Source of the DNA: an uncultured Oscillospiraceae bacterium
GTDB lineage: Bacteria > Bacillota > Clostridia > Christensenellales > CAG-138
Direction: 5' to 3'
NCBI GenBank assembly: GCA_964496795.1
Contig: CAZCAV010000005.1
Span: 1,944-65,943, forward strand
Length of the DNA: 64,000 nucleotides
The notes under the pieces were generated by a model. That model had not been told where the DNA came from, made no database searches, and saw nothing but the letters and a program-made list of their open reading frames with translations. Of the stretch, positions 1-39,153 are shown one piece after another; the stretch's first letter is position 1, and the number at the start of each line of letters is the position of its first letter. The translations under genes were made by a program, and so were the position numbers.

Positions 1-3000
1 GAAATTATGCGATCATCCCCTCCGGCTTCTCTGCCGCCAACTATACCTTCGCATACCAAAACGGCACGCTCACCGTTTCGCCTATCGCCGTCAGCAGCGT
101 GGACAATATCAGCATCAGCCTGCCGCAAAACAGCTTTCAGTATTCCGGCTCCGCTATTACGCCCGCCGTCACCGTGACGGAGGGCGGCGTTGCCATGAGC
201 GAGGATGACTATACCGTCAGCTACTCAGATAACACAAACGCCGGAACGGCTACGGCGACAGTCAGCTTTACACGCAATTTCTCCGGCTCGCTTTCCGGGA
301 CCTTTTCGATAACTCAGGCAAGCGGAACGCCCACAGCCACGCTGTCCAATTGGGTATACGGCGACACGGCTGCCGAGCCTGCGCTCAGCAACAATCCAAG
401 CGACGGAACCGTCGCATGGTATTATCGCGCCGCAGACGAGGAGCGGGATGACGCCATCGCCGTCCAGCCCACAGACGCCGGCAGCTATCTTGTATACGCC
501 GTCGTGGCGACCACCACAAATTATCAGGAGATCACTACCGAGGACGCTTCCTTCACCATTTCGCCGCGTCCTATTACCATCACCGCCGCCAGTACAAGCT
601 GGGTGTATGACGGCAGCGCCCACTCAGACGTCAGTTATATACAAACGGGCGACTTTGCCGGCTCGGACAGCTTTCGCAGTGTTTCCGTCACCGGAAGCAT
701 CACGGATTTCGGGACCGCGGCCAACGTCATCAGCTACATTCTGGCGTCTTCGACAAAAGATTCGAATTACAGTATAAACGCCGTGAATGGAACGCTCAGT
801 ATCACCAAACGGCCGCTTACCCTCCCCGCCAGCTACCATTGGCTTACCGCCAATCCCGGCACGGCCGCATGGGTAGCCGTATCGCGGGACAATCTCACCG
901 TCAGCTATGAGGTAAAGCTCTATCGCGTTGAGGCAAATAATCAAAAAAACCTCGTGGATACCCAGACTGTCTCAACGGGTACTCAGTATGATTTCTCCTC
1001 CGCGATCAAGGCCGATTGCGCAGAGCAAGGCGGCGCTTATTCCTATTGCTATACCATTCAAGCCCAGCCTGCCGGCGGTACAGCAGTGGAGAATTATGTC
1101 GCAAGCGCCGTGTCGGACGACAGCAGCGCTGTCAACACCGCATATATCAGCGTATCCGGCGGCACAGGCTTGAACGCCGCCACCATCGGCGGCAGCAGCG
1201 CCTGCTATTTGATCGCCGGCGAAACCGCCAGTCTTTCTGCCACCGTCAGCAGCGGATATACCTTCGACGAATGGAGCTGCAGCGACAGCGTCATTACACT
1301 TTCCGGCGCGTCCTCTGCCGCCGCGAGCCTCAGCCTTTCCTCCACGCTCGCCTCGCCGGCAGACGCAATTTCCGTCAGCGCCTCCGCGACCGACAGCGCG
1401 CCTGTCATCGCCGCATTTACCGCCGCCAACAGCACGGATCTTCAGTCTGTGACATTGAATCTGCAGGCTTCCGACGGCGTGGGCGTCACAGCCTGGGCTA
1501 TTACGCAAAGCGCTGCCGCTCCTGCGGCGGACGCCAGCGAATGGACGAGCCTGACAGAGCCCGCCGCCTCTCTGAATGAGACCCTGACCGTGACCGCAGC
1601 CGGCACATACTACGCCTATGTCAAGGACAGCGCCGGCAGCATCACCGGCAGCGACGGCTCCTTAAGCGTATACAGCGTGAGCTTTGCCGCAGGCAGCGGC
1701 GGCTCGGGCAGTATGGACAGTATACTCAAGGCGCAGAATACCTCCGTCTCTCTGCCCGCCAGCAGCTTTACCCAATCGGGCATGGCCTTCCTCAGCTGGA
1801 GCGGCAGCACAGGCCTGTATTCCGATCAGGGCTCCTATGCCGCAAACGCCAGCGACACGCTGACAGCTCAATGGACGAACGAAGAGTTCAGCTACACAGT
1901 CCAGTACTTCTATATGGGCACTGACGGCAGCTATGCCGCCACGCCGGACGACAGCGGCTCCTTTACCGCGCTGTACGATACGGAGGTAAGCAGCAGCTCC
2001 GCCCACATACAAAGCGTCCTTACCGGTTTTTCTCTTGACGAGAACAAGGCCGGATCGATCACCGTCTCACAAAACGGGTTGACGCTAAAGGTCTACTATA
2101 AGCGCAACAGCTATACCATCACATACAGCTACCGCATACCCGGAAACAGCGCCGACACCACCAGCACAAGCACCTTCCTTTTCGGCGCCGCCGTTACCGA
2201 AGCGGCAAAGCCTTCGCAGGCGGGCTATACCTTTGTCGGCTGGGTGTATGGGGAAGCGGGCACCGCGCCCAGCACCATGCCGGCAAGCAATATCAACGCC
2301 ACCGGCAGCTTTAACTCCAACTCCACCACCTATACCGTCGTCTGCTATACGCAGGGCTTGGACGGCATATATACGCTGGATCCCAGCCTCACCGATACGA
2401 AATACGCCTCCCACGCCGAATCGCTCAGCTTCAGCACGAGCGACGCCGTGGCGGTTTCCGGCTTTACCGCCGCAGGCGTCAGCGTCAGCTATGGCGTTGT
2501 GGGCGGAACCGCCGCAAGCACGAGCAGCAGCGCCAGCGGTACAGCTTCCGCCATCGACAGTCAGGGCCTGTATGTCAACTATTACTATACCCGCAACAGC
2601 TATACCCTCACGCTGAACGTCTTTCAGGGTTTAAGGGATGTGTCGGACAATCTGAAATATACCCATAGCTGGACCATTTTGTACGGTCAGGCGCTCACTG
2701 CGGACGACTATTCCACATATGAGCAGAGCACCTGGACGCACAGCGAGGGTTATGAGCTGGCAGACTACTCCGACTGGAGCACCGACTCCGCCCCAACGTC
2801 CATGCCGGCCGGAGACGTGGTGGTTACCCGAGACTTCGTGTCCACTACCGAATCCAGCTATTATGTCAAAATATACTATGAGAACGCAGCCGCCGGCACA
2901 TACACGCTGCAGACCACGCTCCTGTATTATGGCAACGTGGGCGCGCAGGTCACTGTGGGCGGCAGCGACAGTGACACCATAAACTATAACAGCTTTTCAG

Positions 3001-6000
3001 GTTACCTCCCTTATTTCAGCTACTATGTGTTCTCTGAAAGCAACACAAGCAACGTGCTGTCCGCCACTGTCTCCAACGTCAACAGCGGCGAGGATCCGGT
3101 GGTGCTTGAGGTATACTTTGACCGCAGCGTCGTCAGTGCTACCATCACATACTATCATAACGAATGCGACGGCACCGGCAATCATGCGATCGCCACGGTG
3201 ACAAAAACGGGCCGCTGGGGAACGACCTACGATATCGCCCCGCTCGCCTATTTTTATGGTGCAAGTCCCGCGGCAGAAAACTATTTTTCCGCCGGTTATC
3301 TGGCGTCCTATTCCGGCTATTACTATTACGAGGGTTGGCATTGGCCGAACAGCAAGCTGACCGTCGCAGGCGATCTAAGCAAAACGTATACGAGCACATT
3401 CGGGCAGAGCGTCTCCGGCGTAACCAATCAGAATTATGTGAATGTCTACTACACCAAGGCCGTGCCCGAGACGCAGTATTACCTCACGGTCAAATACCGT
3501 CCCCAAGCACTCAGCGCCTGGACGGGCACAGCAGACCTGCCTCTTACCGTCAGCGTGGAGGGTTACAGCAACCCTCTTGAAGTCCGAGTCGCGAACCACG
3601 CCTATGTGTTCGACGACAGCTATACGGCAGCTTCCAGCGGCGATTATACGGCTTACCCCGGCGCAGCCCTGCTAAACGGCGTGTGGTCAGTGGGCGCGCT
3701 GAAATCCGGCTTCACCGAGGTCGTCTTAAACAGCGTCAGCTACTACACGGACGGCACCTATCTCTATGTGCTCGACAGCAGCAACCAGTTCTTTATGGGC
3801 AACCGCGTCTCCTACACCGCAGGCGACGGCTCGCTCATCTATACCACTGTCAGCGCTTTCCTGTCGGATTATCAGTCAAACACGGCCTATGCCTCCGACG
3901 CCCGCCGCTCCGGCGCCTATGTCTATAACCGGGGTTACAGCGCCATCATGTACGATAACGGGACTCTGACGATCACCTTCGCTTACCATGAGGTGTACCG
4001 CATCGCCTACAATATGGGGGGAAACACCTGTTATGGCAGCTATTATGCCTACGGCACGTCCATCAGCGCCGTAGACTATACGGACGGCTCCTTCCCCGCA
4101 AAGACCGGCTATTCCATCGTATGGTACAGCGATTACAGCTTTGCCACTCAGGCGTCGTTCCCACTAACGATAACGGGCAATGCCACGCTGTACGGGCGCT
4201 ATGAAAAAAGCGTCGTAGCCGGAACCGACTATGTATACTATCAGCTTGCCGACCCAGCCGTGATAAATGGCGCGGATGTATACTATATCACCGAATCAAA
4301 CCGTGAAAACTCCGCCGTTTCCTCCGGTATGACCAGCTCCACCGACAGCAGCAACATCACAAGCTGGTTTTATAACGGTGCGCTCGTGATGAAGGTCATT
4401 CCCCACTCCACCCTGACTTTTACCGTGATTTCCCTGGCGACCTCAAGCTATGCGCAGGCCGGCTATCACTTTGACGATACCAACACCGGCAATACGCTTA
4501 TGGGCTACTGCGAAACCACAGCCCTGAATCTGCGCGCCTATTTTGCCCGCGACACCTATGCCCTCACGGTGGACCCCAACAATTCCGCCGTCAGCAACAC
4601 CACCGTCTATGAATGCCGCTTTGGGCAGACGGTCAGTATTGGCGCCCCCACACGCGACGGCTACACTTTTTCCGGTTGGGCCTGGCAAAAATGGGACGCG
4701 GCGGAAAATGACGGCGAAGGCGGTTATGTGACATGGGACGGCGGCCCGTCAGGCAGCGGTACGGTTTCCTTTACCATGCCCGGGATTATTCTGAAAGCAA
4801 CCGCCCAGTGGACCCCCGCTGAGTTTAATCTGACCATTACGCACTATTTCCTTACCGGCGGAGGGGCCTACGACGTCTCCGGTCTTGCTGCGCTTCAAGG
4901 CCTGACGGGCGCAGCGGGCGTCATAAGCTTCAACGGAAGCAGTGTACAGGGCACGCTCTATTCCTCAGGCGGCAGCATTGTTGGCGCTTCCTTTGAATCG
5001 GACGGGAAAATCCTATGGTTCTCAGCAAGCAGCGCCACTGTGGATCTGACAAATCTCATCGCCATTACCCAAACCGTCAGCTGTGCCTCCGAGGATGAGG
5101 ACAACGTCAGCGACAATACTATCAGCGGCTACAGTCAATACAGCTATGCCCTTACCCTCTATCAACCCGGAAATACCGTCGAGACTCTGGGCGCAGACGA
5201 TACCTACGCCTGCGTCTACGGTATGAGTCTCAGCTATTACTATACCCGCGGCAGCTTTACCGTCAGCGCCGCGTCCAAGGCCACCGACAACCTGTCTGCG
5301 AGCGCCTCCATTACCGGCTCTGGCAGCTATGTTTTCGGTTCCGCCGCCACGCTCTGTATTACCATCTCTCAGGGCTATACCTTCCTGGGATGGTACAAAG
5401 CGTCGGATGTGCTTGAAGACGGCAGTCTGAAATCTGATATCTCCGCTTATACCGCCCTTTCGGGCAGTCCGAGCTATACCTTCACCGTCATGAGCGCCGT
5501 GGATGCGGTAGCGGTCATACAGCCTCTGGCCGCGGCGGAACCGACCGTCTCCGTGAGCGCGTCGATCGCCGGAGACGCCTATACCCTGACCTATGGCTAC
5601 GCCGCCTCCGCGGCGAACACGCTTTCTGCGTCCGTGGCCCTTTCCGGCGACGCCGCCGCCCATACCGTGGTATCCGGTTATCAATGGCTGGAGGACGGCG
5701 TCAATATTTCCGGCGCGACCTCCTCCACGTTCCTCATTCCCACCGGAAAATCGGTGGGCTCTTATAGCTACACCTGCAAAATCACGCTGACCCGCAGCGA
5801 TAACGGCCGCTCTGCTGAGCAAACCTCCGAACCCTATATCGTCACGGTGCAGAAAGCAAATATGAGCGTCTCCGCGTCCGCTTATTCCGGCGTGTATGAC
5901 GGCGGCGGGCATACTGTCTCGATTACTGTCACCGCGCCCTCCGGTTCAAGCGACTGCACCGTCTATTATTCAAGCACGGAGCTGTCGGAAACCAACTACG

Positions 6001-9000
6001 CCTCCGCCGGCTCCACCGTTAATCCCGCCTACACGAACGTTCAGCTTGACGCAAGCGGCAGTCCGAAGGCCTATACGGTATATTATTATATCCACGATCT
6101 TACCGGCAACTATTCTGACGCGACGGGCAGCTCGACGGTGCTAATCACCCCCGCCACCCTCACCCTTACCACTGCCAGCGCCGCCTTTTCCAAGACCTAT
6201 GACGGCTCGTCAGCCGTCAGCGGGGATCTCAGCGACAGCAGTTCGGACCTGTACCGGCTTGCCCACTCGACCTGTTATACCATACACGGCCTGATGAGCG
6301 GTGACAGCGTCAGCAATTACCTTGTTTCATGCAGCGCGACCTTCAACAGCAGGAACGTATCCACCGCCAGCAGCGTTACCCTCAGCGGTCTGTCGCTTGT
6401 AAACTCCGACAATACCGCGCAGGCAAACTATATCTTTGCCTCCGACTATACGCTGCTCATCTCCGGCTATATTACTCCGCTGGCGCTCGACACGGTATGG
6501 TCCGAAACCCGGAGCTTTGTCTACGACGGGGAGGAGCACGCGCCCGGTATTGCGCTTGGCAGTCAAAGCCTGCCGGATACCGTGACCGTTTCCGTTACCG
6601 GCGCGCACGTCAACGAGGGCAGCTATACCGCGTATTCCGTAATTTCCACGGACGACGGCACAGAAAGCAGCAATTATACCATTACGGCGTCCTCCTGCAG
6701 CTATACCGTTACGGCACGGCCTGTTGCCGTCAGCCCCACGGAAAGCACCGTCGGCTATGACGGGCAAACGCACACGCTTTCCATATTCAGCTTCACAAAC
6801 GGATCGCTTGTCAGCGGCCACAGCTATACCGCCGCGGCAAACGGCTCCTATATCAACGCGGGAAGCTACACCATCACCGCCTGCGATCTGTTGATTACGG
6901 ATGCAAACGGCGTAGATGTGACAGATAACTATACGATTACCTACGGCAGCGCCGCTCTTATCATCACTAAGCGCGCCGTTACCTTCGACGGCGTTACCGC
7001 CAGCAACAAGTCCTATGACGGCACGGCCTCCGTAGACCTGATAACAGCGAACGCTGTGTTTGCGGGGATCGTCGAGGGAGATACCCTGACGCTTGTCGCA
7101 TCCGGAAGCTTTGACAACGCCAATGTGGGACAAAACAAAAAAGTCACGCTGTCCGGTCTTTCCCTTGGCGGCGCCAGCGCCGGCAATTACAGCTTGAATG
7201 TCGACGGCAGCCAGAAGGATACCAACGCCGCCATCACACAGGCGGCACTATCCTTCACGCCGTCCGATCTTACCGTGGTCTACGGCGAATCCGCAAGCTT
7301 TTCCGGTTCCTACTCCGGCTTTGCCGGCAGCGAGGATGTGACCCTGGCAAATCCGAACGGCAGCCCAAGCTATCTGATCCGTGCAGCCGGCAGCAGCGGC
7401 GCCTTTGCCGCCTATACCGCCGCCACGCCCGCCGGCGTTTACGATATCAAGGCCGATGTTGACAACGTATCCTTCGGCAATTACAGCGCAGACTGGAGCG
7501 GCATCAGCGGCAGGCTCACCGTCAGCGCGCGTCCGCTTTCCCTGACGGCGGCCGGCAGTCCTACGGTAACAAAGGTCTATGACGGAACCACCGCCGCAGC
7601 AAGCTGCGTCTCCGGCGACGATTACGTTCTCGGCGCCGTCGAAAGCGACAGCTCATCCGGCATCATCACAGGCGACAGCGTAAGCCTGACCTTCACCGCC
7701 GCCTCGTTCAACAGTAAAGACGTGTCAGTCGCCAATCAGGTGACGCTCACCGGTCTTGGGCTCAGCAACGCTAACTACACGCTTTCCATAAGCTCGCTGG
7801 ACATTCCCGCCGCCATCACTCAAAAGGCGCTCAGCATCAAGGCGGACAGCCAGGCCGTGGTCTACGGTTCCGCCGCCGCCTTTACGGCAAGCTACACAGG
7901 CTTTGCCGCCAATGAGAACGCAACCTTCCTGACCGGCAGCATAGCGTTCGCCTGCAGCTATGATCCTGAAGACGCGGCTCATCGCGGCGTGGGCGTGTAT
8001 CCGATCACCGTCTCCGGCCTCAGCTCAACAAACTATGCTATCAGCTTCGTTAACGGCGAAAATGCCGGCAAGATCACGGTGAGCAAGGCGGTCATTACGG
8101 TCACGGCAAATGATCAGTCGTTCACGCACGGTCAGAGCATCCCCGCCTATGAGAGCAGCTATACAACGGCCGGCTATAAGTATTCGGATGACAGCGCCGT
8201 GATTCCCCAAACGATAAGCTGTGCCTGCGCTGTTACAGCGGACTCTCCTGCGGGCACCTATCCAATTATTCCCGTCATAAGCGACCTGACCGCCGATAAT
8301 TACAGCTTTTCAGCGGTCAACGGTACCATGACCAAGGCGAAAAACATCGTTACCGTCAGCGGCGTCACAGTCAGCGGCAAGGTGTATGACGGTACCACCA
8401 AAGTTGACGGCAGCCAGATCGGCACAGGCAGCGTTGCGTATAGCTTTAGTGGAAACTCGCAGACAACGGCAGACGGCCAAAATGCCGGCGTCAGCGTTAC
8501 GGCCGTGTACGCGAGCGCCAACGTGGGCGCAAGCGTTGGCGTCACGCTCAACATAGAGCTAAACGCCTATCTCAAGGCAAGATATTACATCTTTGAGAAC
8601 GGCAGCCAGACCCAAACAGCCACAACCACCGCCCCGATCACGCAGCGGGTGCTGACTGTAAGCGCGGCAGATAAAACCGTCAGCTATGGCGGCGTCGCGC
8701 CCGCCTATACCGTAACCTATTCAAACTTTGCCCCGAATCAGAGCATCAGCTCCGGCTCGGACGTCACGGGGCCGGTCTCCTATACCTGCAGCTATACCTC
8801 TTCCAGCAGCGCAGGCAGCTATACCATCACCCCTTCCGGCCTCGCCAGCGGCGGCAATTACAGCTTCAACTATGTAAGCGGTACGCTCACGGTCACTCGA
8901 AGCGTCCTGACGGCTCCTGTACCGGTCTGGGACGGTGCTCAGCCCGGCTCAGTCACCTGGAACGCCGTGCCCGGCATAGGCAATGTCGCCCTGTCCGACT

Positions 9001-12000
9001 ATAAGCTGGAGCTGTACAAGGGAAGCACATTGGTCCATACGGTAAGCAGCACCGCCGATACCTCGTTTAATGCTGCAAGCGTCATCCGCACAAACGGCGC
9101 GGGCGCCTACACGGCCAAGGTCACAGCTCTGGCGTCCACGGAAAACAACACGGACTACAGCAATGCAGCCGACAGCGCCGCGGGCACGACAGCCGCGCTT
9201 TATGCGGCGAAGCTGACGTTTGTTTTCTCGTCCGACGAAACTACGCAGGCCGGAGATACGAGCAGCATCAGTATAAAAGGCGGAAGCAGCTATGTGGGCA
9301 TCGCGGGTGAAACCGGCATCGGACTGGCCGCCACCCTCTCGAACGCCACCGGCTACACCGTCTCCTCCTGCTCTGCGGGCAGCACCGCCGCCACAATTAC
9401 CGGCTCACTGAGCGATGCGAGCTATACCGGCGCCGCGGCGCTTTCCAGCAGCCTCGCCTCTGCGGACGATATCACCATCACCCTTACGCTGGCCGCACGT
9501 CCCGCTACGGCCGTATTGACGCTGGCCGTCGCCAATAATGGCGCCAAATTCTCCTACACCGCGGCGCAGGCTCCCGTTGTGACGGCAACGGTCTCCGTCG
9601 CGACCGGCGACAATATAGCTGTCGGGGACTATACCTATGCCTATGAATGGTCGCTGAGGACGTCCCCCTCCTCCGGTTTTGTCACCGATACGACACAAAC
9701 AGACAGCAGCTACGATTTCCCGACTGGTCAAAGGGCTTATTCAGCATATCAAGTCCAATGCAGGATCACCGCCACACGAACAGATAACGGCTTGAGCCGA
9801 ACCGTCGATACAAAAGCAACCGTTGTCATCAACAAGGCCGATCTGGCGCCCGTTCTGAGCCTGAGCGGCTGGACATACGGCGACAGCCGCGGCGTGCCTT
9901 CCGTCACCGGTAATCTGGGCAGTGGGGCTGTTACCTATTACTACGCCGGCTCCAACACCGACGAGGCCGCGTGGAATACCGCTATGCCCACCGATGCGGG
10001 AAGCTACTATGTCAAGATGAGCATTGCGACCTCTGACGATTATAACCAATACGTTATGCTTTCGCAAAGCGCCGTGCTCTTCACCATCAGTCCAAACACG
10101 CTTTCCGTACCCACCGGTCTGGCCTTTAGCGAGCCTACCGGCGTAGCCTCATGGACGGCTGTGGACGGAATCTCCGAGAATAACGGTTCAGAGTCCGCCT
10201 CCTCCGTGTCCGTGACCTATCAAGTCAAGCTGTATAAGGGTAGCACGCTTTATAAAACCTACGACGCCACCGCCGGTACGGAAATGGACATGTCCGCCGA
10301 TATCAGCGAGATTGGCAGCTACAGCTTCACCGTCACCGCATTGAGCAGCAATACCTCCAACTGCAAAAGCAGCGTTGAAAGCTCTCCCTGCAGCCTTACC
10401 AATACCAACGGAAACATTACGGCGGAAGGCTACACTGGCAACGCCTACTCAAAGGTGTATAACGGTGCAGCCATAGTCATGTCCGTCGTTGGCGTCAGCG
10501 GCGAGGTCGGCTATCAATGGTATAAGGACGGTAAAGTGATCAGCGGCGCCACCGCGTCCACGCTCTATGTCTATGACGTTTTAGACAGCGGGCTGTACTG
10601 CTGTGATATCACAAGCGGTTCCAATCAGGTTGGCCACTCGGTTTATCGAACCGTGGCCATCACAAAAAAGGCTCTTGAGATCACCGCCGATAACGGCGAG
10701 CAGATCTATAACGGCCAAGCGCTGAATAAAGAAAGCTACACCTGCACAAGCAACACCGGCTTGGCCGCCACGGATACGCTGTACAGTCTGACTTACACCG
10801 GCAGCCAGACAAACGTTGGCTCCAGCAGCAACATTCCGTCCGCCGCCGTGATCCATCGCGGCGCCGTTGACGCCACGGCCAACTATGCCATTACCTATCA
10901 GTCTGGCACGCTCACCGTAACAAACGCCGCGCTTACCGAAGTATCGGTTGTGCAGAGCGGCACGCTTACCTATACGGGCACGGCTCAGGCTGCCGCGGTC
11001 AGCGCAAGCGCCACCGCGGTCAATGCCCAGACCGTCAGCTTCCGCTATTGCGCCGACGAAGACGGAACGTATTCTTCCGCCGTCCCGTCGTTCATGTCCG
11101 CCGGCACGCACCGCATCTACTACCAGGTGTCTGCGCCGAACCACACGACCTGCGCAGGCTTCTTTGATATCGTCATTGGGAAGGCTCCTCTGACGGTCAC
11201 CGCAAATAATAAAACCATCACCTACGGCGACGCTCCGGCCAACAATGGCGTCAGCTACGATGGTTTTGTAAATGGCCAGACGGCGGCCGTTCTCACCGGT
11301 ACGCTCGCCTACTCCTACACTTATGCGCAAAACGACAGCGCAGGCAGCTATTCCATTACGCCAGGCGGGTATACAGAGGTCAATTATGCAATCAGCTATG
11401 CAAACGGAGCTCTGACCGTCCAAAAGGCCACGGTTGCCGAGCCGACGATACCGTCCAAGGTCTATACCGGAGGTACGCTTACCGCGGCCGTCAGCAATAC
11501 AGCCCGCTATAACGTGACCGCCAACGCCGGCGGTACATCGGCAGGCAGCTACAACGTCGTCCTGACCCTCACCGACAGTACGAATTACCGGTGGAGCAGC
11601 GTCAATACCGCGGCCGTAACGCTGAGCTTTACCATTACCCAAGCTGCGAACGTCTGGACGCAGACGCCCGCCATCAGCGGCTGGACCTACGGCGATAGCG
11701 CCAACGCACCCACGGCCGTATCCAAATTCGGCATCTGGTCCGTCAGCTACACGGGTACGGTAAATGACGGAACCGCCTACGATTCCAGCGCTGCGCCCTC
11801 GCAAGCCGGCAGCTATACGGCACATTTCAACGTCGTCCAAACGAGCGACTATACAGGCTTGACCGCTTCCTGCGCGTTCAGCATCGCGAAAAAGGCGCTT
11901 ACTGTCACCGCCAAAGACCACGTCATTACCTACGGCGACGCTCCGGCTAACAACGGCGTGGTATACGGCGGCTTTGCAGGCAGCGAAACCGCTTCCGACC

Positions 12001-15000
12001 TTGGCGGATCGCTTTCCTATTCTTACACATATACACGGTACGGCAATGTCGGCGAGTATCTCATTCCGTTGTCGGGGCTTTCGAGCAATAACTATACCAT
12101 CAGCTGCGTTGACGGCAAGCTCACCGTGAGTCAAAAGGCGATCACCGTCCGAGCGGAGGCAAAGTCCAAGGTGTACGGCACGAACGAGCCTGCGCTCACC
12201 TACACCGTCAACGCCGGCGGGCTGTTAAACGAAGATACGCTCTCCGGAAGCCTTACAAGAGATGTGGGAGAAAATGTAGGGCAGTATGCCATTGGCGTTG
12301 GAACGCTGAATAACGATAACTACGCCATCGACTACACGAGCGCATATCTCAGCATCACACCTGCCGCGCTCACTGGCGCCGTTCAGCAAAGCGGCACGCT
12401 CACCTATACAGGCGCCGCGTTGACAGCCTCCCTGAGCAGCACCGTTGCAGCGGTAAACAGTCAGACTATCCGCTACACCTACTGCAAAACCCAGGACGGA
12501 GAGTATCTGGCAAGCGTGCCGACCTTTGTCAGCGTAAACAGCTATACCGTCTACTATAAGGCCTCCGCGCCGAATCATGATGTTTTGTCCGGAAGCTTCA
12601 CCGTGACCATCCAGAAGGCCACGGTTACCGAGCCTGCCATTTCCGCAAAGGCTTATACCGGCGGTACGCTTACCGCCGACATAAGCAATGCAGCCCGCTA
12701 CACCGTGACCGCCAACGCCGGCGGCATCGAAAAGGGCACTTACGACGTTGTCCTCACCCTCGTCGACAGTAATAACTATCGGTGGAGCAGCGTTAATACC
12801 GCGGATGTAACACTGAGCTTCATCATCAGCGAAGCTGTCAACACCTGGACGCAAACGCCCGCTATCTCCGGCTGGACCTACGGCCAAAGCGCCAGCGCGC
12901 CCACAGCAGCATCTAAATTCGGCGTCTGGTCCGTCAGCTACACCGGCACTGAGAACGACGGCAGCCCCTACAACTCAGGCGATGCGCCCTCACAGGCAGG
13001 CAGCTATACGGCCCATTTTTCCGTTCCGGCCACGGCAAATTATCCGGCGCTGACGCAAAATGTGGATTTCACTGTTGCCAAGGCCCAGTTGACCGTCGCC
13101 GCCAACGACCATGCCGTCACCTACGGAGACGCTCCGGCCAATCACGGCGTCAGCTGCACAGGCTTGGTGAGCGGCGATACGCAGTCCAGCCTTGGCGGCG
13201 CGCTTTCCTATCAGTACACCTATCATCAGAACGATCCGGCAGGCAGCTACCTGATCACACCGTCGGGCCTTAATGAATTTAATTATGTCATCGCCTATGT
13301 AAACGGCACGCTCACCGTGACCAACGCCCGGCTTTCCAATATTTCCGTCGGACAAGGCGCTGCGCTTACATATACCGGAACAGCTCAGACGGCCGCCGTC
13401 AACGCGAGCGCTGCGTCTGTCAACAATCAGACGGTCAGCTTCAGCTATTGCGCTTCCGAAAACGGAGCTTATACTTCCGCTGTCCCTTCGTTTATGCCCG
13501 CGGGCAGGCACAGAATATATTATAAAGCGACTGCGCCAAATCACACGGACTCCACCGGCTACTTTGACATAACTATTCAAAGCGCCACTCTGACCATTAC
13601 CGCCAAAAACAAAACCATCGTCTATGGAGACGCTCCGGCCAATGATGGCGTAAGCTATTCCGGCTTTGTGAACAATGAAACCGCGGCCGTTCTCAGCGGA
13701 GCGCTCCGCTATGCTTACAGCTATACGCAGTATGACGACGCAGGCGAATATGCGATCAAGCCCTCCGGCTGTACAAGCAGCAATTACGCCATCCGCTATG
13801 TCGACGGCGCCCTCACCGTAAGCAAAAAGGCAATCACCGTCACCGCGGAAGCAAAGAGTAAGGAGTACGGCACTGCGGCAGATCCCAACCTGACTTATAC
13901 GGTCAGCGCAAACGGGCTGGTGAACAACGATACGCTGTCCGGAAGCCTTATGAGAGTCGCGGGCGAAGCCATAGCGGATTATGCCATTCTTCTGGGCACG
14001 CTGAATCATGCGAACTATACCATTACCTTTGTAGGCGCCCTGCTTAGCATCACAAAGGCCACCCTCACGGTTACCGCCGACAGCCAGACCATCACCTACG
14101 GCGAGGCTCCGACCGGCTTCAGCGTCAGCTATTCAGGCTTTGTGGATGGCGACGATGAAACAGCGCTTGGCGGCACGCTGACCTGCGACTGCCCCTACGC
14201 GCAATATGGCGCCTCCGGCAGCTACAACATCACGCCCGGCGGCTATGAGAGCAGCAAGTACACATTCCGATATGCAGCCGGAACGCTGACAGTACAAAAC
14301 GCTGCGCTTACAAACGTTTCGGCCGCTTCAGACAAGAGTCTTGTCTATAACGGCGCGATGCAGACGGCTGCGGTAACCGCCTCGGCCACTGCGGTAAACA
14401 ATCAGGCCGTCACATATACCTACTGCGCCACGCAAAGCGGCGCCTATTCCGCATCCGTTCCCGCCTTCAAGGACGCGGGCGAGCACAGGGTATACTACAT
14501 TGTCGCGGCGCCGAACCACGATGCCGTCAGCGGAAGCTTTGTTGTAACCATTTCAAAGGCCGCTTTGACCATCACCGCCAATGACCACGCCATTACCTAC
14601 GGCGACGCTCCGGCCAATAATAGCGTAACCTACGCCGGCTTCAAAGGCGCCGACTCGAGATTGAACCTTGGCGGCACGCTTTCCTATACCTACAATTACA
14701 AGCAGAACGACGCCGTGGGCGAATACAGGATAACGCCCTACGGCTATTCGGATACAAACTATACGATCAGCTATAAAGCGGGCACGCTGACAGTGCAGCC
14801 GGCACAGCTCAAGGACCTGCGGGTGACGCAAAGCGCCGCGCTGGTTTTCTCCGGCCTGCCGCAGATCGCCGCGGTGAGCGCAAGCGCGCAGTCCATAAAC
14901 AGTCAGCCTGTAAGCTTCGTTTATTCCACTTCGCAAAGCGGAGCCTATTCCGCCTCCGTTCCCGCCTTTACCGAAGCGGGCGAATACACGGTATACTACA

Positions 15001-15923
15001 AGGCCTCCGCGCCAAATCATGAGACCGTCGCCGGAAGCTTTACCATCGTCATTGGCGAAGCGGAGACAGCCGACACGAATGTGACTTCCATTGACGCGCT
15101 GATCAGCGAGTCCGAACTCGCCGGCGGCCTCGATGTCTGGCGTTTTCAGGGCGGGATCAGTTATGAAAACCTGGATCGTTTCAGAGAGCTCGATTACAGC
15201 GATGATTCCGATGACAGTGAGATCTGGTGCGCCGTTATGCACGGCAGCGGCTATGATGATGGCATTGAGCTTGTAATAGAGCAGATACAGAATCCCAATG
15301 AAACCGGACAAAACCGTCTGAAGCTGTACGGCGCGCCCTGTTCCTCTTATGCGAGCTACTCTCAGCAGCAGCTCGAGGGTCTGCTCGACGGGCTGGATCA
15401 GATCGCTGTCTTTGATATCTATCTGCAAAAAAGCGGCGTTAGAATCACAGAGTTCTCCGGTACATACTATGTGCTCATACTGTTGCCGAAGGAGATGCGC
15501 AGCGTTGAGGATTTCCAGATCGTCTATGAAAACAGCAACGGCAGCGTCGAGGTGTTCGAGACCCTGCGTGATGGAAACTACATCATGTTCTCAACAACCC
15601 ATTTCTCTGATTTTCAGATTCTTGGCCGCATGCCGTCTCAGATAAATCTCTGGCCGCTGATCATTCTTATGACGCTCATGCTGCTCATAGAGCTCTGCCT
15701 GTTTATCCGCATCAGGCGCAAACGGCAGGAAGAACGGTCTCAGGTCACCCTCAGAGCCTGCGCCCTGCCCGCGGCCTTGGCAGCCGTTCGCATCATTCCA
15801 AAATATGGCGTGCTCATTTGCATTATATTGGGCATCCTCGTGATCGCAGGGGGCGTGGTTCTGCTGTGCGCCGCACTTCGCGGCAAAACCGGGCGGCAAA
15901 AAACCGATCAGCGCGGCGCATAA
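1..15923 (+). CDS. Giant repetitive cell-surface (adhesin-like) protein, C-terminal >5,300 codons; 5' end lies outside the window
   Basis: ORF 99..15923 in the track. The same frame is open from nt 3. Nt 3-98 encode NYAIIPSGFSAANYTFAYQNGTLTVSP, the module-ending motif (NY.I.Y..GTLTV) that recurs more than ten times downstream, so the GTG at 99 is internal. Recurrent modules: K.YDGT (YDG-like), ITYGDAPAN..Y.GF (MBG-like), GYTF.GW (Listeria-Bacteroides/InlB-B-like) and Y.V.LYKG (FN3/Ig-like). Two hydrophobic helices at the extreme C-terminus. Confidence 0.85.
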   Translation, partial: NYAIIPSGFSAANYTFAYQNGTLTVSPIAVSSVDNISISLPQNSFQYSGSAITPAVTVTEGGVAMSEDDYTVSYSDNTNAGTATATVSFTRNFSGSLSGTFSITQASGTPTATLSNWVYGDTAAEPALSNNPSDGTVAWYYRAADEERDDAIAVQPTDAGSYLVYAVVATTTNYQEITTEDASFTISPRPITITAASTSWVYDGSAHSDVSYIQTGDFAGSDSFRSVSVTGSITDFGTAANVISYILASSTKDSNYSINAVNGTLSITKRPLTLPASYHWLTANPGTAAWVAVSRDNLTVSYEVKLYRVEANNQKNLVDTQTVSTGTQYDFSSAIKADCAEQGGAYSYCYTIQAQPAGGTAVENYVASAVSDDSSAVNTAYISVSGGTGLNAATIGGSSACYLIAGETASLSATVSSGYTFDEWSCSDSVITLSGASSAAASLSLSSTLASPADAISVSASATDSAPVIAAFTAANSTDLQSVTLNLQASDGVGVTAWAITQSAAAPAADASEWTSLTEPAASLNETLTVTAAGTYYAYVKDSAGSITGSDGSLSVYSVSFAAGSGGSGSMDSILKAQNTSVSLPASSFTQSGMAFLSWSGSTGLYSDQGSYAANASDTLTAQWTNEEFSYTVQYFYMGTDGSYAATPDDSGSFTALYDTEVSSSSAHIQSVLTGFSLDENKAGSITVSQNGLTLKVYYKRNSYTITYSYRIPGNSADTTSTSTFLFGAAVTEAAKPSQAGYTFVGWVYGEAGTAPSTMPASNINATGSFNSNSTTYTVVCYTQGLDGIYTLDPSLTDTKYASHAESLSFSTSDAVAVSGFTAAGVSVSYGVVGGTAASTSSSASGTASAIDSQGLYVNYYYTRNSYTLTLNVFQGLRDVSDNLKYTHSWTILYGQALTADDYSTYEQSTWTHSEGYELADYSDWSTDSAPTSMPAGDVVVTRDFVSTTESSYYVKIYYENAAAGTYTLQTTLLYYGNVGAQVTVGGSDSDTINYNSFSGYLPYFSYYVFSESNTSNVLSATVSNVNSGEDPVVLEVYFDRSVVSATITYYHNECDGTGNHAIATVTKTGRWGTTYDIAPLAYFYGASPAAENYFSAGYLASYSGYYYYEGWHWPNSKLTVAGDLSKTYTSTFGQSVSGVTNQNYVNVYYTKAVPETQYYLTVKYRPQALSAWTGTADLPLTVSVEGYSNPLEVRVANHAYVFDDSYTAASSGDYTAYPGAALLNGVWSVGALKSGFTEVVLNSVSYYTDGTYLYVLDSSNQFFMGNRVSYTAGDGSLIYTTVSAFLSDYQSNTAYASDARRSGAYVYNRGYSAIMYDNGTLTITFAYHEVYRIAYNMGGNTCYGSYYAYGTSISAVDYTDGSFPAKTGYSIVWYSDYSFATQASFPLTITGNATLYGRYEKSVVAGTDYVYYQLADPAVINGADVYYITESNRENSAVSSGMTSSTDSSNITSWFYNGALVMKVIPHSTLTFTVISLATSSYAQAGYHFDDTNTGNTLMGYCETTALNLRAYFARDTYALTVDPNNSAVSNTTVYECRFGQTVSIGAPTRDGYTFSGWAWQKWDAAENDGEGGYVTWDGGPSGSGTVSFTMPGIILKATAQWTPAEFNLTITHYFLTGGGAYDVSGLAALQGLTGAAGVISFNGSSVQGTLYSSGGSIVGASFESDGKILWFSASSATVDLTNLIAITQTVSCASEDEDNVSDNTISGYSQYSYALTLYQPGNTVETLGADDTYACVYGMSLSYYYTRGSFTVSAASKATDNLSASASITGSGSYVFGSAATLCITISQGYTFLGWYKASDVLEDGSLKSDISAYTALSGSPSYTFTVMSAVDAVAVIQPLAAAEPTVSVSASIAGDAYTLTYGYAASAANTLSASVALSGDAAAHTVVSGYQWLEDGVNISGATSSTFLIPTGKSVGSYSYTCKITLTRSDNGRSAEQTSEPYIVTVQKANMSVSASAYSGVYDGGGHTVSITVTAPSGSSDCTVYYSSTELSETNYASAGSTVNPAYTNVQLDASGSPKAYTVYYYIHDLTGNYSDATGSSTVLITPATLTLTTASAAFSKTYDGSSAVSGDLSDSSSDLYRLAHSTCYTIHGLMSGDSVSNYLVSCSATFNSRNVSTASSVTLSGLSLVNSDNTAQANYIFASDYTLLISGYITPLALDTVWSETRSFVYDGEEHAPGIALGSQSLPDTVTVSVTGAHVNEGSYTAYSVISTDDGTESSNYTITASSCSYTVTARPVAVSPTESTVGYDGQTHTLSIFSFTNGSLVSGHSYTAAANGSYINAGSYTITACDLLITDANGVDVTDNYTITYGSAALIITKRAVTFDGVTASNKSYDGTASVDLITANAVFAGIVEGDTLTLVASGSFDNANVGQNKKVTLSGLSLGGASAGNYSLNVDGSQKDTNAAITQAALSFTPSDLTVVYGESASFSGSYSGFAGSEDVTLANPNGSPSYLIRAAGSSGAFAAYTAATPAGVYDIKADVDNVSFGNYSADWSGISGRLTVSARPLSLTAAGSPTVTKVYDGTTAAASCVSGDDYVLGAVESDSSSGIITGDSVSLTFTAASFNSKDVSVANQVTLTGLGLSNANYTLSISSLDIPAAITQKALSIKADSQAVVYGSAAAFTASYTGFAANENATFLTGSIAFACSYDPEDAAHRGVGVYPITVSGLSSTNYAISFVNGENAGKITVSKAVITVTANDQSFTHGQSIPAYESSYTTAGYKYSDDSAVIPQTISCACAVTADSPAGTYPIIPVISDLTADNYSFSAVNGTMTKAKNIVTVSGVTVSGKVYDGTTKVDGSQIGTGSVAYSFSGNSQTTADGQNAGVSVTAVYASANVGASVGVTLNIELNAYLKARYYIFENGSQTQTATTTAPITQRVLTVSAADKTVSYGGVAPAYTVTYSNFAPNQSISSGSDVTGPVSYTCSYTSSSSAGSYTITPSGLASGGNYSFNYVSGTLTVTRSVLTAPVPVWDGAQPGSVTWNAVPGIGNVALSDYKLELYKGSTLVHTVSSTADTSFNAASVIRTNGAGAYTAKVTALASTENNTDYSNAADSAAGTTAALYAAKLTFVFSSDETTQAGDTSSISIKGGSSYVGIAGETGIGLAATLSNATGYTVSSCSAGSTAATITGSLSDASYTGAAALSSSLASADDITITLTLAARPATAVLTLAVANNGAKFSYTAAQAPVVTATVSVATGDNIAVGDYTYAYEWSLRTSPSSGFVTDTTQTDSSYDFPTGQRAYSAYQVQCRITATRTDNGLSRTVDTKATVVINKADLAPVLSLSGWTYGDSRGVPSVTGNLGSGAVTYYYAGSNTDEAAWNTAMPTDAGSYYVKMSIATSDDYNQYVMLSQSAVLFTISPNTLSVPTGLAFSEPTGVASWTAVDGISENNGSESASSVSVTYQVKLYKGSTLYKTYDATAGTEMDMSADISEIGSYSFTVTALSSNTSNCKSSVESSPCSLTNTNGNITAEGYTGNAYSKVYNGAAIVMSVVGVSGEVGYQWYKDGKVISGATASTLYVYDVLDSGLYCCDITSGSNQVGHSVYRTVAITKKALEITADNGEQIYNGQALNKESYTCTSNTGLAATDTLYSLTYTGSQTNVGSSSNIPSAAVIHRGAVDATANYAITYQSGTLTVTNAALTEVSVVQSGTLTYTGTAQAAAVSASATAVNAQTVSFRYCADEDGTYSSAVPSFMSAGTHRIYYQVSAPNHTTCAGFFDIVIGKAPLTVTANNKTITYGDAPANNGVSYDGFVNGQTAAVLTGTLAYSYTYAQNDSAGSYSITPGGYTEVNYAISYANGALTVQKATVAEPTIPSKVYTGGTLTAAVSNTARYNVTANAGGTSAGSYNVVLTLTDSTNYRWSSVNTAAVTLSFTITQAANVWTQTPAISGWTYGDSANAPTAVSKFGIWSVSYTGTVNDGTAYDSSAAPSQAGSYTAHFNVVQTSDYTGLTASCAFSIAKKALTVTAKDHVITYGDAPANNGVVYGGFAGSETASDLGGSLSYSYTYTRYGNVGEYLIPLSGLSSNNYTISCVDGKLTVSQKAITVRAEAKSKVYGTNEPALTYTVNAGGLLNEDTLSGSLTRDVGENVGQYAIGVGTLNNDNYAIDYTSAYLSITPAALTGAVQQSGTLTYTGAALTASLSSTVAAVNSQTIRYTYCKTQDGEYLASVPTFVSVNSYTVYYKASAPNHDVLSGSFTVTIQKATVTEPAISAKAYTGGTLTADISNAARYTVTANAGGIEKGTYDVVLTLVDSNNYRWSSVNTADVTLSFIISEAVNTWTQTPAISGWTYGQSASAPTAASKFGVWSVSYTGTENDGSPYNSGDAPSQAGSYTAHFSVPATANYPALTQNVDFTVAKAQLTVAANDHAVTYGDAPANHGVSCTGLVSGDTQSSLGGALSYQYTYHQNDPAGSYLITPSGLNEFNYVIAYVNGTLTVTNARLSNISVGQGAALTYTGTAQTAAVNASAASVNNQTVSFSYCASENGAYTSAVPSFMPAGRHRIYYKATAPNHTDSTGYFDITIQSATLTITAKNKTIVYGDAPANDGVSYSGFVNNETAAVLSGALRYAYSYTQYDDAGEYAIKPSGCTSSNYAIRYVDGALTVSKKAITVTAEAKSKEYGTAADPNLTYTVSANGLVNNDTLSGSLMRVAGEAIADYAILLGTLNHANYTITFVGALLSITKATLTVTADSQTITYGEAPTGFSVSYSGFVDGDDETALGGTLTCDCPYAQYGASGSYNITPGGYESSKYTFRYAAGTLTVQNAALTNVSAASDKSLVYNGAMQTAAVTASATAVNNQAVTYTYCATQSGAYSASVPAFKDAGEHRVYYIVAAPNHDAVSGSFVVTISKAALTITANDHAITYGDAPANNSVTYAGFKGADSRLNLGGTLSYTYNYKQNDAVGEYRITPYGYSDTNYTISYKAGTLTVQPAQLKDLRVTQSAALVFSGLPQIAAVSASAQSINSQPVSFVYSTSQSGAYSASVPAFTEAGEYTVYYKASAPNHETVAGSFTIVIGEAETADTNVTSIDALISESELAGGLDVWRFQGGISYENLDRFRELDYSDDSDDSEIWCAVMHGSGYDDGIELVIEQIQNPNETGQNRLKLYGAPCSSYASYSQQQLEGLLDGLDQIAVFDIYLQKSGVRITEFSGTYYVLILLPKEMRSVEDFQIVYENSNGSVEVFETLRDGNYIMFSTTHFSDFQILGRMPSQINLWPLIILMTLMLLIELCLFIRIRRKRQEERSQVTLRACALPAALAAVRIIPKYGVLICIILGILVIAGGVVLLCAALRGKTGRQKTDQRGA
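10920..15065 (+). repeat. In-frame higher-order tandem repeat array inside the giant CDS
   Basis: A module of the form ..A.L....Q.G.L.Y.G.AQ.AAV.ASA..VN.Q.V.F.Y... restarts at about nt 10920, 12357, 13320, 14295 and 14796. Spacings are 1437, 963, 975 and 501 nt, all multiples of 3. Each restart is followed by ITYGDAPAN-type MBG-like modules. Copies are clearly diverged at the nucleotide level. Confidence 0.8.
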
Positions 15924-15974: not shown

Positions 15975-16019
15975 AATGTAAAACAAGCGCACAGATTCGC
16001 CGTGAGGCTGTCTGTGCGC
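15975..16019 (-). terminator. Rho-independent terminator candidate downstream of rpoD
   Basis: Perfect 9-bp stem GCGCACAGA (15987-15995) / TCTGTGCGC (16011-16019) with a 15-nt loop. On the minus strand it is followed by TTGTTTTACATTG. Lies between the convergent giant CDS and rpoD. Confidence 0.6.
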
Positions 16020-16046: not shown

Positions 16047-17147
16047 TTATTCGAGAAAATCCTTAAGGCGTTTACTGCGGCTCGGATGGCGCAGCTTTCT
16101 GAGCGCCTTGGCCTCTATCTGCCGGATACGCTCGCGCGTAACGTTGAATTCCTTGCCCACTTCCTCAAGCGTGCGCGCCTTGCCGTCGTCAAGGCCGTAG
16201 CGCAGGCGCAATACCTTGGCTTCGCGCGGCGTCAGAGAATTGAGCACGTCCATAAGCTGTTCCTTGAGGAGCGTCACGGCCACGGCCTCCGCCGGCGCGG
16301 GCGCGTCGTCGTCCGGTATAAAATCGCCCAGATGCGAGTCGTCCTCTTCACCGATCGGCGTTTCCAACGACACCGGCTCCTGTGCAATTTTGATGATCTC
16401 GCGCACCTTTTCCTCGGAAATACCCATTTCGCGCGCGATCTCGTCCGGACGGGGATCGCGACCATATTCCTGCACAAGCTGACGATTGACGCGGATCAGT
16501 TTATTGATCGTCTCAACCATATGCACCGGAATACGGATGGTGCGCGCCTGATCGGCGATGGCGCGCGTAATGGCTTGACGTATCCACCAGGTCGCATAGG
16601 TCGAGAATTTATAGCCCTTGCGGTAATCAAACTTCTCCACGGCCTTGATCAAGCCCAGGTTCCCCTCCTGAATCAAATCCAGGAAAAGCATGCCGCGGCC
16701 GACATAGCGCTTGGCTATGGACACTACAAGACGCAGATTGGCCTCCGCCAGCTGCTGCTTGGCCTCCGGATCGCCCTCCGCCATACGCTGTGCGATCTCA
16801 ACCTCCTCAGTTGCGGTCAAAAGCGGCACCTTGCCAATCTCCTTGAGGTACATGCGCACAGGGTCGTCAATATTCACGCCCTCCGTGGTAGCCAGCACGG
16901 TCTCGATCTGTGCGATCTCTTCGTTGATATCCGCCGGCACTTCGATCTCTTCGACCACGTCGATATTCAGTTCCTCAATATGATCATAAATTTTCTCAAT
17001 CTGCTCCTGATCGAGTTCAAGCTCCTCGAGAGAATCCATGATCTCCTTGTAGGTCAGAACGCCTTTTGTCTTGCCCTTTTCCAGCAATTCATGGATCTTC
17101 TGGGCGCGGACGTCCTTGGACATGGCCTGCTGTGCCTTTTGTTCCAT
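16047..17147 (-). CDS. rpoD: RNA polymerase primary sigma factor (SigA/RpoD)
   Basis: 366 aa. Regions 1.2-4.2 are recognisable ([67 protein letters not shown]; C-terminal [30 protein letters not shown]). Sits downstream of dnaG. Confidence 0.97.
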
Positions 17148-24823: not shown

Positions 24824-24852
24824 ATTATAGCGGCGGCAAATGCGCCTGTCAA
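24824..24852 (-). promoter_or_regulatory. Consensus sigma-A promoter of the T-box/hisS-aspS unit
   Basis: Minus strand TTGACA (24852-24847), 17-nt spacer, TATAAT (24829-24824). The -35 overlaps the hemZ-like stop codon. Confidence 0.7.
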
Positions 24853-33493: not shown

Positions 33494-33515
33494 AATACGT
33501 TCCTCTTTCACAGAC

Positions 33516-33541
33516 AAAGGAAGGCCTTGTGGCCTTCCTTT
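33516..33541 (-). terminator. Intercistronic hairpin (attenuator/terminator candidate) between scfA and scfB
   Basis: Perfect 11-bp stem AAAGGAAGGCC / GGCCTTCCTTT with a 4-nt loop, 20 nt after the scfA stop. The U tail is weak. Confidence 0.55.
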
Positions 33542-38082: not shown

Positions 38083-38135
38083 ATCTGATCAAGCTGTTAA
38101 TACAATGAATTATACCACGAATCGAGGTTATGTGC

Positions 38136-39149: not shown

Positions 39150-39153
39150 CCGT

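Follow-up and report, generated by a model that had tools for sequence, protein, structure and literature searches.

A giant surface protein of an uncultured Oscillospiraceae bacterium with a conserved membrane module and a predicted autoproteolytic joint at its C-terminus

How could an extracellular protein of more than 5,000 residues be held at the surface of a bacterial cell, and what could its mixture of repeat modules do there? This question was raised by the left end of a 64,000-nucleotide (nt) stretch of DNA from an uncultured Oscillospiraceae bacterium (assembly GCA_964496795.1, contig CAZCAV010000005.1, positions 1,944 to 65,943), hereafter the window. Its plus strand carries, as a single open frame (3..15923; 5,306 codons and a stop), the 3' part of a giant surface-protein gene whose 5' end lies left of the window. 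An earlier reading made from the letters alone (the sequence-only reading) had described the repeat modules and knew of no ligand or function for their combination. The C-terminal domain and the transmembrane (TM) module described below supply a proposed working principle, namely, a pre-nicked joint that would permit the release of a 5,000-residue fibre under load. In our assessment, the gene probably encodes a Sec-exported, membrane-anchored fibrillar adhesin of ~5,950 amino acids (aa), with an autoproteolytically nicked ectodomain that could be shed under force.

A conserved C-terminal module

Residues 5050–5306 form a conserved module without Pfam annotation, which had gone unnoticed in the sequence-only reading. 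The last 285 residues (aa 5022–5306) had no match in Pfam or NCBIfam, and a word-indexed search with window positions 15066–15920 found no homolog. When 1.84 billion representatives were searched exhaustively with HMMER, 445 relatives emerged, of which 134 reached E ≤ 1e-10; this ruled out the idea of an orphan C-terminus. The relatives are nearly always the C-terminal ends of proteins of 1,000–6,443 aa. Since the module lies outside every current Pfam and NCBIfam model, such proteins are annotated by their repeats only.

In the module alignment (A1), a beta-rich ectodomain part is followed by a TM helix with a near-invariant Glu, a strongly basic loop, and an uncharged stretch with an invariant Pro. 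The pattern of the ectodomain part is ...LDIYL...ITEF.G.Y.VK.LLP.ELR...VVY...DG..EV..T..DG.Y..F.T.HFS.F.ILG. In the window protein, this part (aa 5050–5210; 15150..15632, plus strand, where residue a corresponds to nt 3a to 3a+2) is a candidate juxtamembrane beta-sandwich of the MAIN (Microbial Autoproteolysis INducing) type, that is, GAIN-B/ZU5-like, to judge from the HMMER relatives, an AlphaFold2 (AF2) model, and Foldseek. It contains H5200-F5201-S5202 (15600..15608, plus strand), the predicted autoproteolytic site, whose scissile bond would lie between F and S according to A1, the model, and experimentally validated sites.

The serine is invariant in A1, and the histidine and phenylalanine are conserved at 90% or more. 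Among 153 module instances, 99 have the complete HFS triad; H and S/T are present together in 104 and absent together in 28, with 21 mixed cases (Fisher p 6e-15). Such joint retention is expected of a catalytic pair, not of independent structural positions, which argues against a static, uncleaved adhesin or fibre, in which the sandwich would be an extra stalk domain, the HFS motif would be structural, and the TM segments would be a plain anchor. We regard this alternative as unlikely, although the positions flanking the triad (F/Y at Ser+2, I/L/V at Ser+4, and G at Ser+6) are conserved like the triad or more, as for a structural strand.

The AF2 model of the module, computed with A1, showed a sandwich with a predicted local distance difference test (pLDDT) score of 83–88, strands up to residue 188 of the model, and helices at residues 196–223, 234–243, and 248–276. 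The HFS motif was located in the turn that joins the last two strands (172–177 and 182–188), and the last strand leads into the 28-residue helix. A Foldseek search against the PDB gave no match at E ≤ 0.001. The matches of highest probability, at E 0.005–0.2, were the GAIN domains 8oek (0.97), 9mqr (0.93), 8ikj (0.91), and 4dlo and the ZU5 domains of ankyrin (4d8o, 3ud1, and 3ud2) and of the NLRP1 FIIND (7crw). GAIN and ZU5 domains are the classic autoproteolytic beta-sandwiches. Thus, the fold evidence is weak, as a static adhesin would allow, but the best matches are specifically autoproteolytic folds; for the modeled module, they point to a GAIN-B/ZU5-like fold.

Relation to MAIN domains

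MAIN domains were described in a preprint by Brogan & Rudner (bioRxiv, May 2026; 10.64898/2026.05.12.724683) as GAIN-B-like sandwiches found by Foldseek. In Bacillus subtilis YfkN, cleavage between F and S within HFS was established by Edman sequencing and abolished by the substitution S1346A, and the fragments of cleaved MAIN domains remain non-covalently associated. The domain was found in ~15,000 proteins, mostly of Bacillota, including Clostridia, where it lies between a large adhesion or enzyme ectodomain and a surface anchor; the vast majority of these proteins have sortase, SLH, or wall-binding anchors. No signaling has so far been tied to the C-terminal fragment. In the tables of the preprint, Flg_new ranks second in frequency among the partner domains, architectures such as MucBP-Flg_new x4-fn3-MBG-...-ZU5 are given, and the DPAM labels of the fold have the templates 4dlo, 3ud1, and 3g5b, the first two of which also appear among the Foldseek matches of our module.

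The validated site strings were obtained by translating the mutagenic oligonucleotides of the preprint. They include DDMVTGYTNHFSEYTIL (YfkN), GQVVFKTNHFSLFAIK, and ETDHFSIFSVF; the corresponding string of the window protein is GNYIMFSTTHFSDFQILG. The window site agrees with the validated TNHFSEYTIL, TNHFSLFAI, and TDHFSIF, with '.F.T.HFS.[FY].I' as the common string. The distance from the serine to the TM segment is 7–8 residues in most relatives and 11 in the window protein, where the first segment (TM1) starts at aa 5214. Taken together, the motif, its location in the last turn, and its constant spacing from the anchor correspond to those of validated MAIN and GAIN sites, contrary to what a static adhesin would lead one to expect.

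The resemblance to MAIN proteins such as YfkN and the IgA-Fc receptor of Streptococcus agalactiae extends to the overall layout: a large ectodomain of adhesion modules, for which the preprint lists the partners Flg_new, MucBP, fn3, and MBG; a GAIN-B/ZU5-like sandwich; the HFS motif in the turn preceding the last strand; and, finally, a surface anchor. We infer that the C-terminal domain is of the MAIN type, which would place the protein among the MAIN proteins. The window protein differs in being ~3.5 times the reported MAIN mean of 158 kDa and in having no recognized enzyme or lectin domain, and its cleavage is predicted.

Several observations weigh against an autoproteolytic adhesin. The N-terminal halves of five validated MAIN domains, available as partial construct sequences, scored no better than shuffled sequences with the module's hidden Markov model (HMM); therefore, sequence homology to the validated domains rests on the cleavage strand only. 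The module profile found no meaningful relative among PDB sequences either. The anchor differs from those of MAIN proteins in being a conserved TM module directly after the last strand. In about 30% of the relatives, H and/or S is missing, which indicates that the fold is possible without cleavage. The missing sequence link outside the cleavage site and the relatives without the triad are also what an uncleaved stalk domain would predict. For the ectodomain, ~40% of the giant protein had no Pfam match even at E ≤ 1, a search of the window protein and of its orthologs' N-termini gave no adhesive (ligand-binding) Pfam family, and an AF2 model of aa 266–1160 built on a five-sequence alignment had a low confidence (pLDDT 57).

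Membrane module and anchoring

TM1 (aa 5214–5237; 15642..15713, plus strand), predicted from hydropathy, A1, and the model helix 196–223, is followed by the stop-transfer sequence RIRRKRQEE. Its membrane-embedded Glu is nearly invariant (E209, at least 90% in A1). The second hydrophobic stretch (aa 5252–5292; 15756..15878, plus strand), predicted from hydropathy, A1, and the model, consists of a short helix, a Pro-x-x-Gly turn with the invariant Pro, a 23-aa helix, and a basic C-terminal tail. The invariant Pro is followed by Gly or Asn-Gly, and the uncharged stretch comprises 40–45 residues in close relatives. In 98% of the members, the loop after TM1 carries a net positive charge (mean +4.2), and the tail past the second stretch is positive (+4 in the window protein, which has 13 residues beyond the last hydrophobic segment). 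The charges and lengths suggest three membrane passes, or one pass and a re-entrant hairpin, with an intracellular C-terminus.

At least one TM segment follows the module in 152 of the 153 instances, and at least two in 125. No sortase-like (LPXTG-type) motif was detected by regular expression in the window protein or among 150 relatives, which ruled out sortase anchoring, and the window protein has no SLH domain. Thus, its surface anchor is the C-terminal TM module. Judging from the alignment, the TM1 Glu and the Pro of the second stretch mark this module as conserved beyond the needs of an anchor.

This conservation raises the question of whether the protein might be a mechanosensory receptor, in which the stub would become exposed once the ectodomain is lost and the TM module would signal inward, for instance by way of a partner protein or of regulated intramembrane proteolysis, by analogy with adhesion G-protein-coupled receptors (GPCRs) and RsgI/SEAL proteins. 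Such a role would be compatible with a shed adhesin and is no strict alternative to it; we hold it to be distinctly unlikely. It is in keeping with the near-invariant Glu and the invariant Pro in an uncharged stretch of 40–45 aa, which exceed what anchoring requires, with the membrane anchoring of all but one of the relatives and the lack of a sortase signal, with the long tails beyond the TM segments in many relatives, 24% of which end in a uL15-type domain, and with the preprint's report of no signaling yet for the C-terminal fragment. Against it stand the short tail of the window protein (13 residues, with no recognizable output domain), the lack of a linked regulator or protease gene on the visible side of the gene, and the fact that the topology is itself inferred.

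With little confidence, the proposal can be widened to a clade of at least 445 clusters (50% identity) that would include the window protein, in which a MAIN/GAIN-like autoproteolytic domain is joined directly to a conserved membrane module instead of a wall anchor and the stub would transmit force-driven loss of the ectodomain inward. About a quarter of its chains continue into a uL15-type domain, which would be cytoplasmic, and a bacterial counterpart of adhesion-GPCR logic might be seen here, speculative as this is. If true, the clade would be the 'cis' signaling arm reported missing by the MAIN preprint. The membrane-anchored branch is in any case the natural place to ask whether the C-terminal fragment acts inside the cell after release.

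The uL15-type tails are an observation in their own right. In 36 of the 150 relatives (24%), the protein ends beyond the TM segments in a Ribosomal_L27A/uL15-type domain (PF00828), at E 1e-8 to 1e-14 and above the gathering score (P0013, P0022, P0025, P0031, P0039–P0041, P0044, and others). In P0013 (3,901 aa), it is the only Pfam match. The label does not occur in the available parts of the MAIN preprint's tables, and the window protein has no such tail.

Proposed mode of action

In the proposed autoproteolytic adhesin, the giant protein would be exported by Sec and anchored C-terminally in the membrane. Moving outward from the cell, the TM module would be followed by the MAIN-type sandwich, a stalk of ~18 MBG_2 units, a segment of FN3-like, Ig-like, YDG, and MBG modules, and a distal beta-grasp third. 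The distal MucBP-like and Flg_new modules would be the likeliest ligand-binding part, possibly for ligands of the glycan or mucus type. After export, S5202 would attack the carbonyl of F5201 with H5200 as the base, and an N-to-O acyl shift would be followed by hydrolysis. Only hydrogen bonding by the last beta-strand would then hold the nicked ectodomain of ~5,200 residues to a 104-residue membrane stub. If a bound ectodomain came under tension, this joint could separate, and the fibre would be shed without tearing of the membrane.

Domain organization of the ectodomain

The hmmscan against Pfam that the sequence-only reading had proposed recovered YDG, MBG_2, Flg_new, and Flg_new_2, all above their gathering scores: YDG (PF18657) at E 3.8e-32 and 110.8 bits (cut-off 25), MBG_2 (PF18676) at E 1.8e-151 and 493 bits (cut-off 25), Flg_new (PF09479) at E 3.7e-17 and 62.6 bits (cut-off 27), and Flg_new_2 (PF18998) at E 1.6e-9 and 38.0 bits (cut-off 23.6). 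The NCBIfam scan added only the List_Bact_rpt repeat. MBG_2 matched 12 stretches in the C-terminal half and three in the N-terminal half, the best of the latter at aa 2610–2685. A unit map, for which HMMs were started from the Pfam matches and refined by iteration on the giant protein itself, resolved a series of stalk-type units with at least 23 strong MBG-type, four YDG, and four Flg_new units. Six amino acids (Ser, Ala, Thr, Gly, Val, and Tyr) make up 61% of the residues. All features given below are on the plus strand.

The window begins within a module, as had been claimed from the motif in the first codons: residues 1–25, NYAIIPSGFSAANYTFAYQNGTLTV, are the terminal part of an MBG unit. 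This tail and three diverged MBG-type units, recognized by our own HMM seeded on Pfam MBG_2, occupy aa 1–265 (3..797). They are followed by the first copy of a 'Y.V.LYR' module (aa 271–378; 813..1136), identified by its paralogs and by profile comparison as FN3-like. Two more copies (aa 2967–3072 and 3365–3473), with Ig_2-like and MBG-like units between them in the unit map, lie in 8901..10421. The three 'Y.V.LY[KR]' motifs start at aa 302, 3000, and 3406, that is, nt 906, 9000, and 10218, close to the 0.85, 8.9, and 10.1 kb at which such modules had been placed. Their positions thus held, whereas the label 'FN3/Ig-like' given to them was plausible and weakly supported. The three paralogous copies of the window protein and seven copies in orthologs were available for this module; in the PDB, its profile matched chains of FN3 fold only (contactins, tissue factor, and neogenin, at E 0.06–1), and one member reached Pfam fn3 at E 0.05. 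On this profile evidence, an FN3 fold of the 'Y.V.LY' modules is plausible.

A distal region of alternating beta-grasp modules extends over aa 381–1810 (1143..5432), as delimited with Pfam, NCBIfam, our own HMMs, and the AF2 model. It contains four Flg_new units (aa 381–433, 705–758, 1516–1570, and 1753–1806), recognized by Flg_new, Flg_new_2, and List_Bact_rpt; the InlB-B-like modules reported earlier were thus borne out by four confident units above the gathering score. MucBP-like 'Y.V.Y...YY.R' blocks were assigned to aa 628–705, 775–868, 952–1049, and 1622–1753 by our own HMMs and the low-confidence AF2 model; these blocks had no Pfam match at E ≤ 1. The earlier statement that 'Y.V.Y' blocks precede Flg_new modules held for three Flg_new units, whose blocks lie at aa 628, 1622, and, less clearly, ~1405, whereas the blocks at aa 775 and 952 stand only ahead of divergent Flg_new-like stretches. 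Our HMMs also placed an Ig-like unit around aa 441–560, along with divergent units, in this region. When the aa 266–1160 model was submitted to Foldseek, the only significant matches were to lactococcal YwfG (E 7e-6), followed by weaker ones to MucBP domains, MUB, and tandem ubiquitin-like domains. The model fits a chain of beta-grasp modules. A globular 'head' considered for the unassigned aa 1100–1515 was rejected, as visual inspection and weak HMM signals resolved this part into more beta-grasp and Flg_new-like units.

Farther toward the C-terminus, an Ig_2-like module (aa 1842–1945; 5526..5837) was identified by our own HMM and reached Pfam Ig_2 at E 0.002, below gathering; two paralogs, found by the same HMM, start at aa 3163 and 3468 (9489–9815 and 10404–10670). 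The mixed YDG/MBG_2 stalk (aa 2051–2962; 6153..8888) was mapped by Pfam and the unit map, with YDG units at aa 2051, 2322, 2510, and 2779. The 'K.YDG' motif noted earlier occurs four times, at aa 2064, 2336, 2524, and 2793, and these occurrences are the four YDG units. The membrane-proximal array (aa 3558–5022; 10674..15068) consists of ~18 MBG_2 units according to Pfam, the unit map, and DNA repeats. It has higher-order periods of 167 and 397 aa (DNA spacings of 501 and 1191 nt; 60–83% identity). The MBG-like motif 'ITYGDAP..Y.GF' of the sequence-only reading was found at aa 3730, 3966, 4363, 4530, and 4855, in agreement with the MBG_2 assignment. Apparent 'Flg_new' units at aa ~3852 and ~4247 were discarded, since comparison with Pfam showed a drift of the iterated HMM onto MBG-type units.

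Missing 5' end, orthologs, and integrity of the reading frame

In frame 3 of the plus strand, no stop occurs from nt 3 until 15921–15923. The 5,306 codons counted agree with the frame of more than 5,300 codons reported earlier, and the other five frames are full of stops: plus-strand frames 1 and 2 contain 187 and 159 stops within the same 16.5 kb, and no reverse-strand stretch stays open for more than 547 codons. The composition of the gene is native, with a GC content of 0.574 and a GC content at third codon positions (GC3) of 0.698, compared with a GC3 of 0.64–0.76 in its neighbors.

Relatives of the giant gene are few. A scan of species-representative genomes gave only two, at ~33% identity, and an exact codon-degenerate pattern had no match in the metagenome collection. 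In 5.8 billion clusters, the N-proximal 1,250 residues had 11 homologs, of which the best is 45% identical, and the middle region had one. Three orthologs, P0001, P0003, and P0004, start with classic Sec signal peptides, in accordance with the earlier claim that the true start and signal peptide lie upstream. Their residues 599–641 align to window residue 1–2, and the sequences are colinear from there. In P0001, an MBG_2 unit (residues 586–664) spans the position aligned to window residue 1, which means that the window starts inside a domain. Since the orthologs place the signal peptide ~600–640 residues upstream, the full protein is probably ~5,950 aa long, with ~600–640 residues (~1.9 kb) beyond the left edge; by the same comparison, the signal peptide would lie left of the window. 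Besides the signal peptide, the upstream stretch of the orthologs contains one 'Y.V.LYK', one Flg_new, and one Ig_2-like module together with the MBG_2 unit cut by the window; no enzyme and no known tip adhesin is among these modules.

The nearest long ortholog, L004 from the metagenome-assembled genome GCA_018610385.1, is colinear with the window protein across aa 2–3675 at 39% identity. This colinearity with an independent ortholog, the 5,306 stop-free codons beside closed alternative frames, the native codon composition, the diverged repeats, and the intact C-terminal module with its predicted catalytic triad (HMM score 290) make it hardly credible that the gene is an assembly artefact or a decaying pseudogene, even though misassembly is common for giant repeat genes and the nearest long ortholog has a single in-frame TAA.

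In L004, this TAA (14021–14023) is the only stop within a frame of more than 3,900 codons, and because of it, gene callers split the gene into products of 1,340 aa and more than 3,152 aa. An independent Logan assembly of SRR10059219 (L005) has TAA at the same codon. It may represent a real split, a pseudogene, or read-through. Another relative, L003 (8287–9870), is 45% identical to the window protein along the first ~1,090 residues of the latter; it then continues in a different frame and ends after ~2,280 residues with Flg_new_2 and SLH domains. The C-terminal-module HMM had no match in L001–L005. Together with the SLH ending of L003, this indicates that related ectodomains are paired with different anchors.

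Age of the repeats

The best DNA repeat pairs of the gene are 81–83% identical across 121–284 nt, most pairs are 60–75% identical, and Tandem Repeats Finder reported no array in the gene. At the protein level, the 23 strongest MBG-type units have a mean pairwise identity of 27%, and adjacent units share 52% at most. The repeats are thus old and diverged and form no tandem arrays, which makes assembly collapse or expansion unlikely.

These values also bear on whether the protein could be a non-adhesive rod of variable length in the manner of Periscope proteins, that is, a spacer or shield that sets cell-surface distances through repeat number. The Periscope study (PMC8201768) is the origin of the families YDG and MBG_2, a long MBG array is present here, and SasG, Rib, and Sgo0707 share with the window protein the common Pfam families YDG/MBG_2 and a rod-like surface architecture. 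However, near-identical tandem repeats are the defining property of Periscope proteins (PMC8201768). The window protein has no repeat above 83% DNA identity across up to 300 nt, no reported tandem array, and neighboring MBG units that are far from similar; repeats as old as these offer no substrate for length-varying recombination. A length-variable array of this type was therefore ruled out, and we consider the spacer interpretation as a whole very improbable.

Comparison with known surface proteins

The repeat families do occur in large bacterial adhesins, as the sequence-only reading had stated: in the paper on the fibrillar-adhesin classifier (PMC9210967), YDG and Flg_new serve as stalk domains and the term 'MBG stalk domain' appears. 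All domain families recognized in the window protein are regarded as adhesin stalk domains in the literature (PMC8201768, PMC9210967). The proposal of an extracellular fibre or adhesin is upheld by these stalk families, by the Sec signal peptides of the orthologs, and by the C-terminal membrane anchor. Like the fibrillar adhesin-like proteins of Firmicutes (Monzon et al., PMC9210967), MUB of Limosilactobacillus reuteri, and YwfG of Lactococcus lactis, the window protein has a long stalk of small beta-domains, MucBP-like and Flg_new beta-grasp modules, a C-terminal anchor, and an outward N-terminal region. Unlike them, it has no known tip domain, a membrane module instead of LPXTG, a juxtamembrane domain of autoproteolytic type, and an unusual size. 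As a giant with an MBG/YDG/Flg_new stalk, it is an ordinary, though very large, fibrillar adhesin of gut-type Clostridia; its membrane-anchored C-terminus, modeled as MAIN-type, would set it apart from wall-anchored MAIN proteins.

The GAIN domains of adhesion GPCRs (latrophilin, BAI3, and CD97) offer the closest parallel in fold, being the matches of best probability. In both cases, an adhesion ectodomain is followed by an autoproteolytic-type sandwich, whose H-hydrophobic-S/T site precedes the last strand, and then by a TM helix a few residues on. The window protein differs in having two hydrophobic stretches (two or three passes) and neither a 7TM bundle nor a 7TM Pfam match; in addition, its host is bacterial, no GAIN-A helical subdomain was recognized, and there is no G-protein coupling and no detectable sequence similarity. 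SEA/SEAL proteins (mucins and clostridial RsgI) resemble the proposed joint in a juxtamembrane nick within a beta-sheet, a non-covalent hold, and a proposed separation by force, but have another fold and a cleavage motif of the G|SVVV type. RsgI also has an N-in topology and a cytoplasmic anti-sigma domain, to which nothing in the window protein is comparable.

Genomic context

The right flank of the giant gene, on the minus strand, comprises rpoD (16047–17147), dnaG, an HD-domain dGTPase-like gene, a HAD hydrolase gene, and RseC, followed by aspS, hisS, dtd, relA, apt, recJ, ackA-pta, recO, era, ybeY, phoH, and yqfD. It is a conserved chromosomal housekeeping block of a spore-forming member of Bacillota (yqfD is a sporulation gene). 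The earlier statement of a core-genome context without an obvious island was supported by this block and by the composition, and it was checked on the right side only; a horizontal-transfer island found no support in either. No regulator or protease gene linked to the giant gene was detected on this visible side of the window.

The convergent stop codons of the giant gene and rpoD are separated by a 123-nt spacer with a strong hairpin (15987–16019), which is common to both genes and was identified from the sequence on both strands (RNA fold z −2.9 on the plus and −2.3 on the minus strand). On the minus strand, the hairpin is followed by the U-run UUGUUUU, 28 nt past the rpoD stop. A simple terminator scan reported only the inner part of this hairpin. 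The convergence of the giant gene on an rpoD terminator, noted earlier, was thus reproduced.

Some minor features of the right flank were also observed. Window positions 38001–40000 are an outlier within the window, with an AT skew of −0.24; they include a plus-strand open reading frame of 339 aa (38130–39149) without a Pfam match, adjoined by a minus-strand, weakly DivIVA-like open reading frame (39154–40245). Two radical-SAM proteins are encoded within the housekeeping block on the minus strand (24849–26294 and 32162–33517), the second of which adds Fer4_12 and SPASM, a domain make-up of peptide- or cofactor-maturating enzymes. Between ybeY and phoH, the minus strand encodes a 7TM receptor with an intracellular HD hydrolase (46417–48624; 7TMR-HDED / 7TM-7TMR_HD / HD), an ordinary-looking arrangement that is found in many Bacillota.

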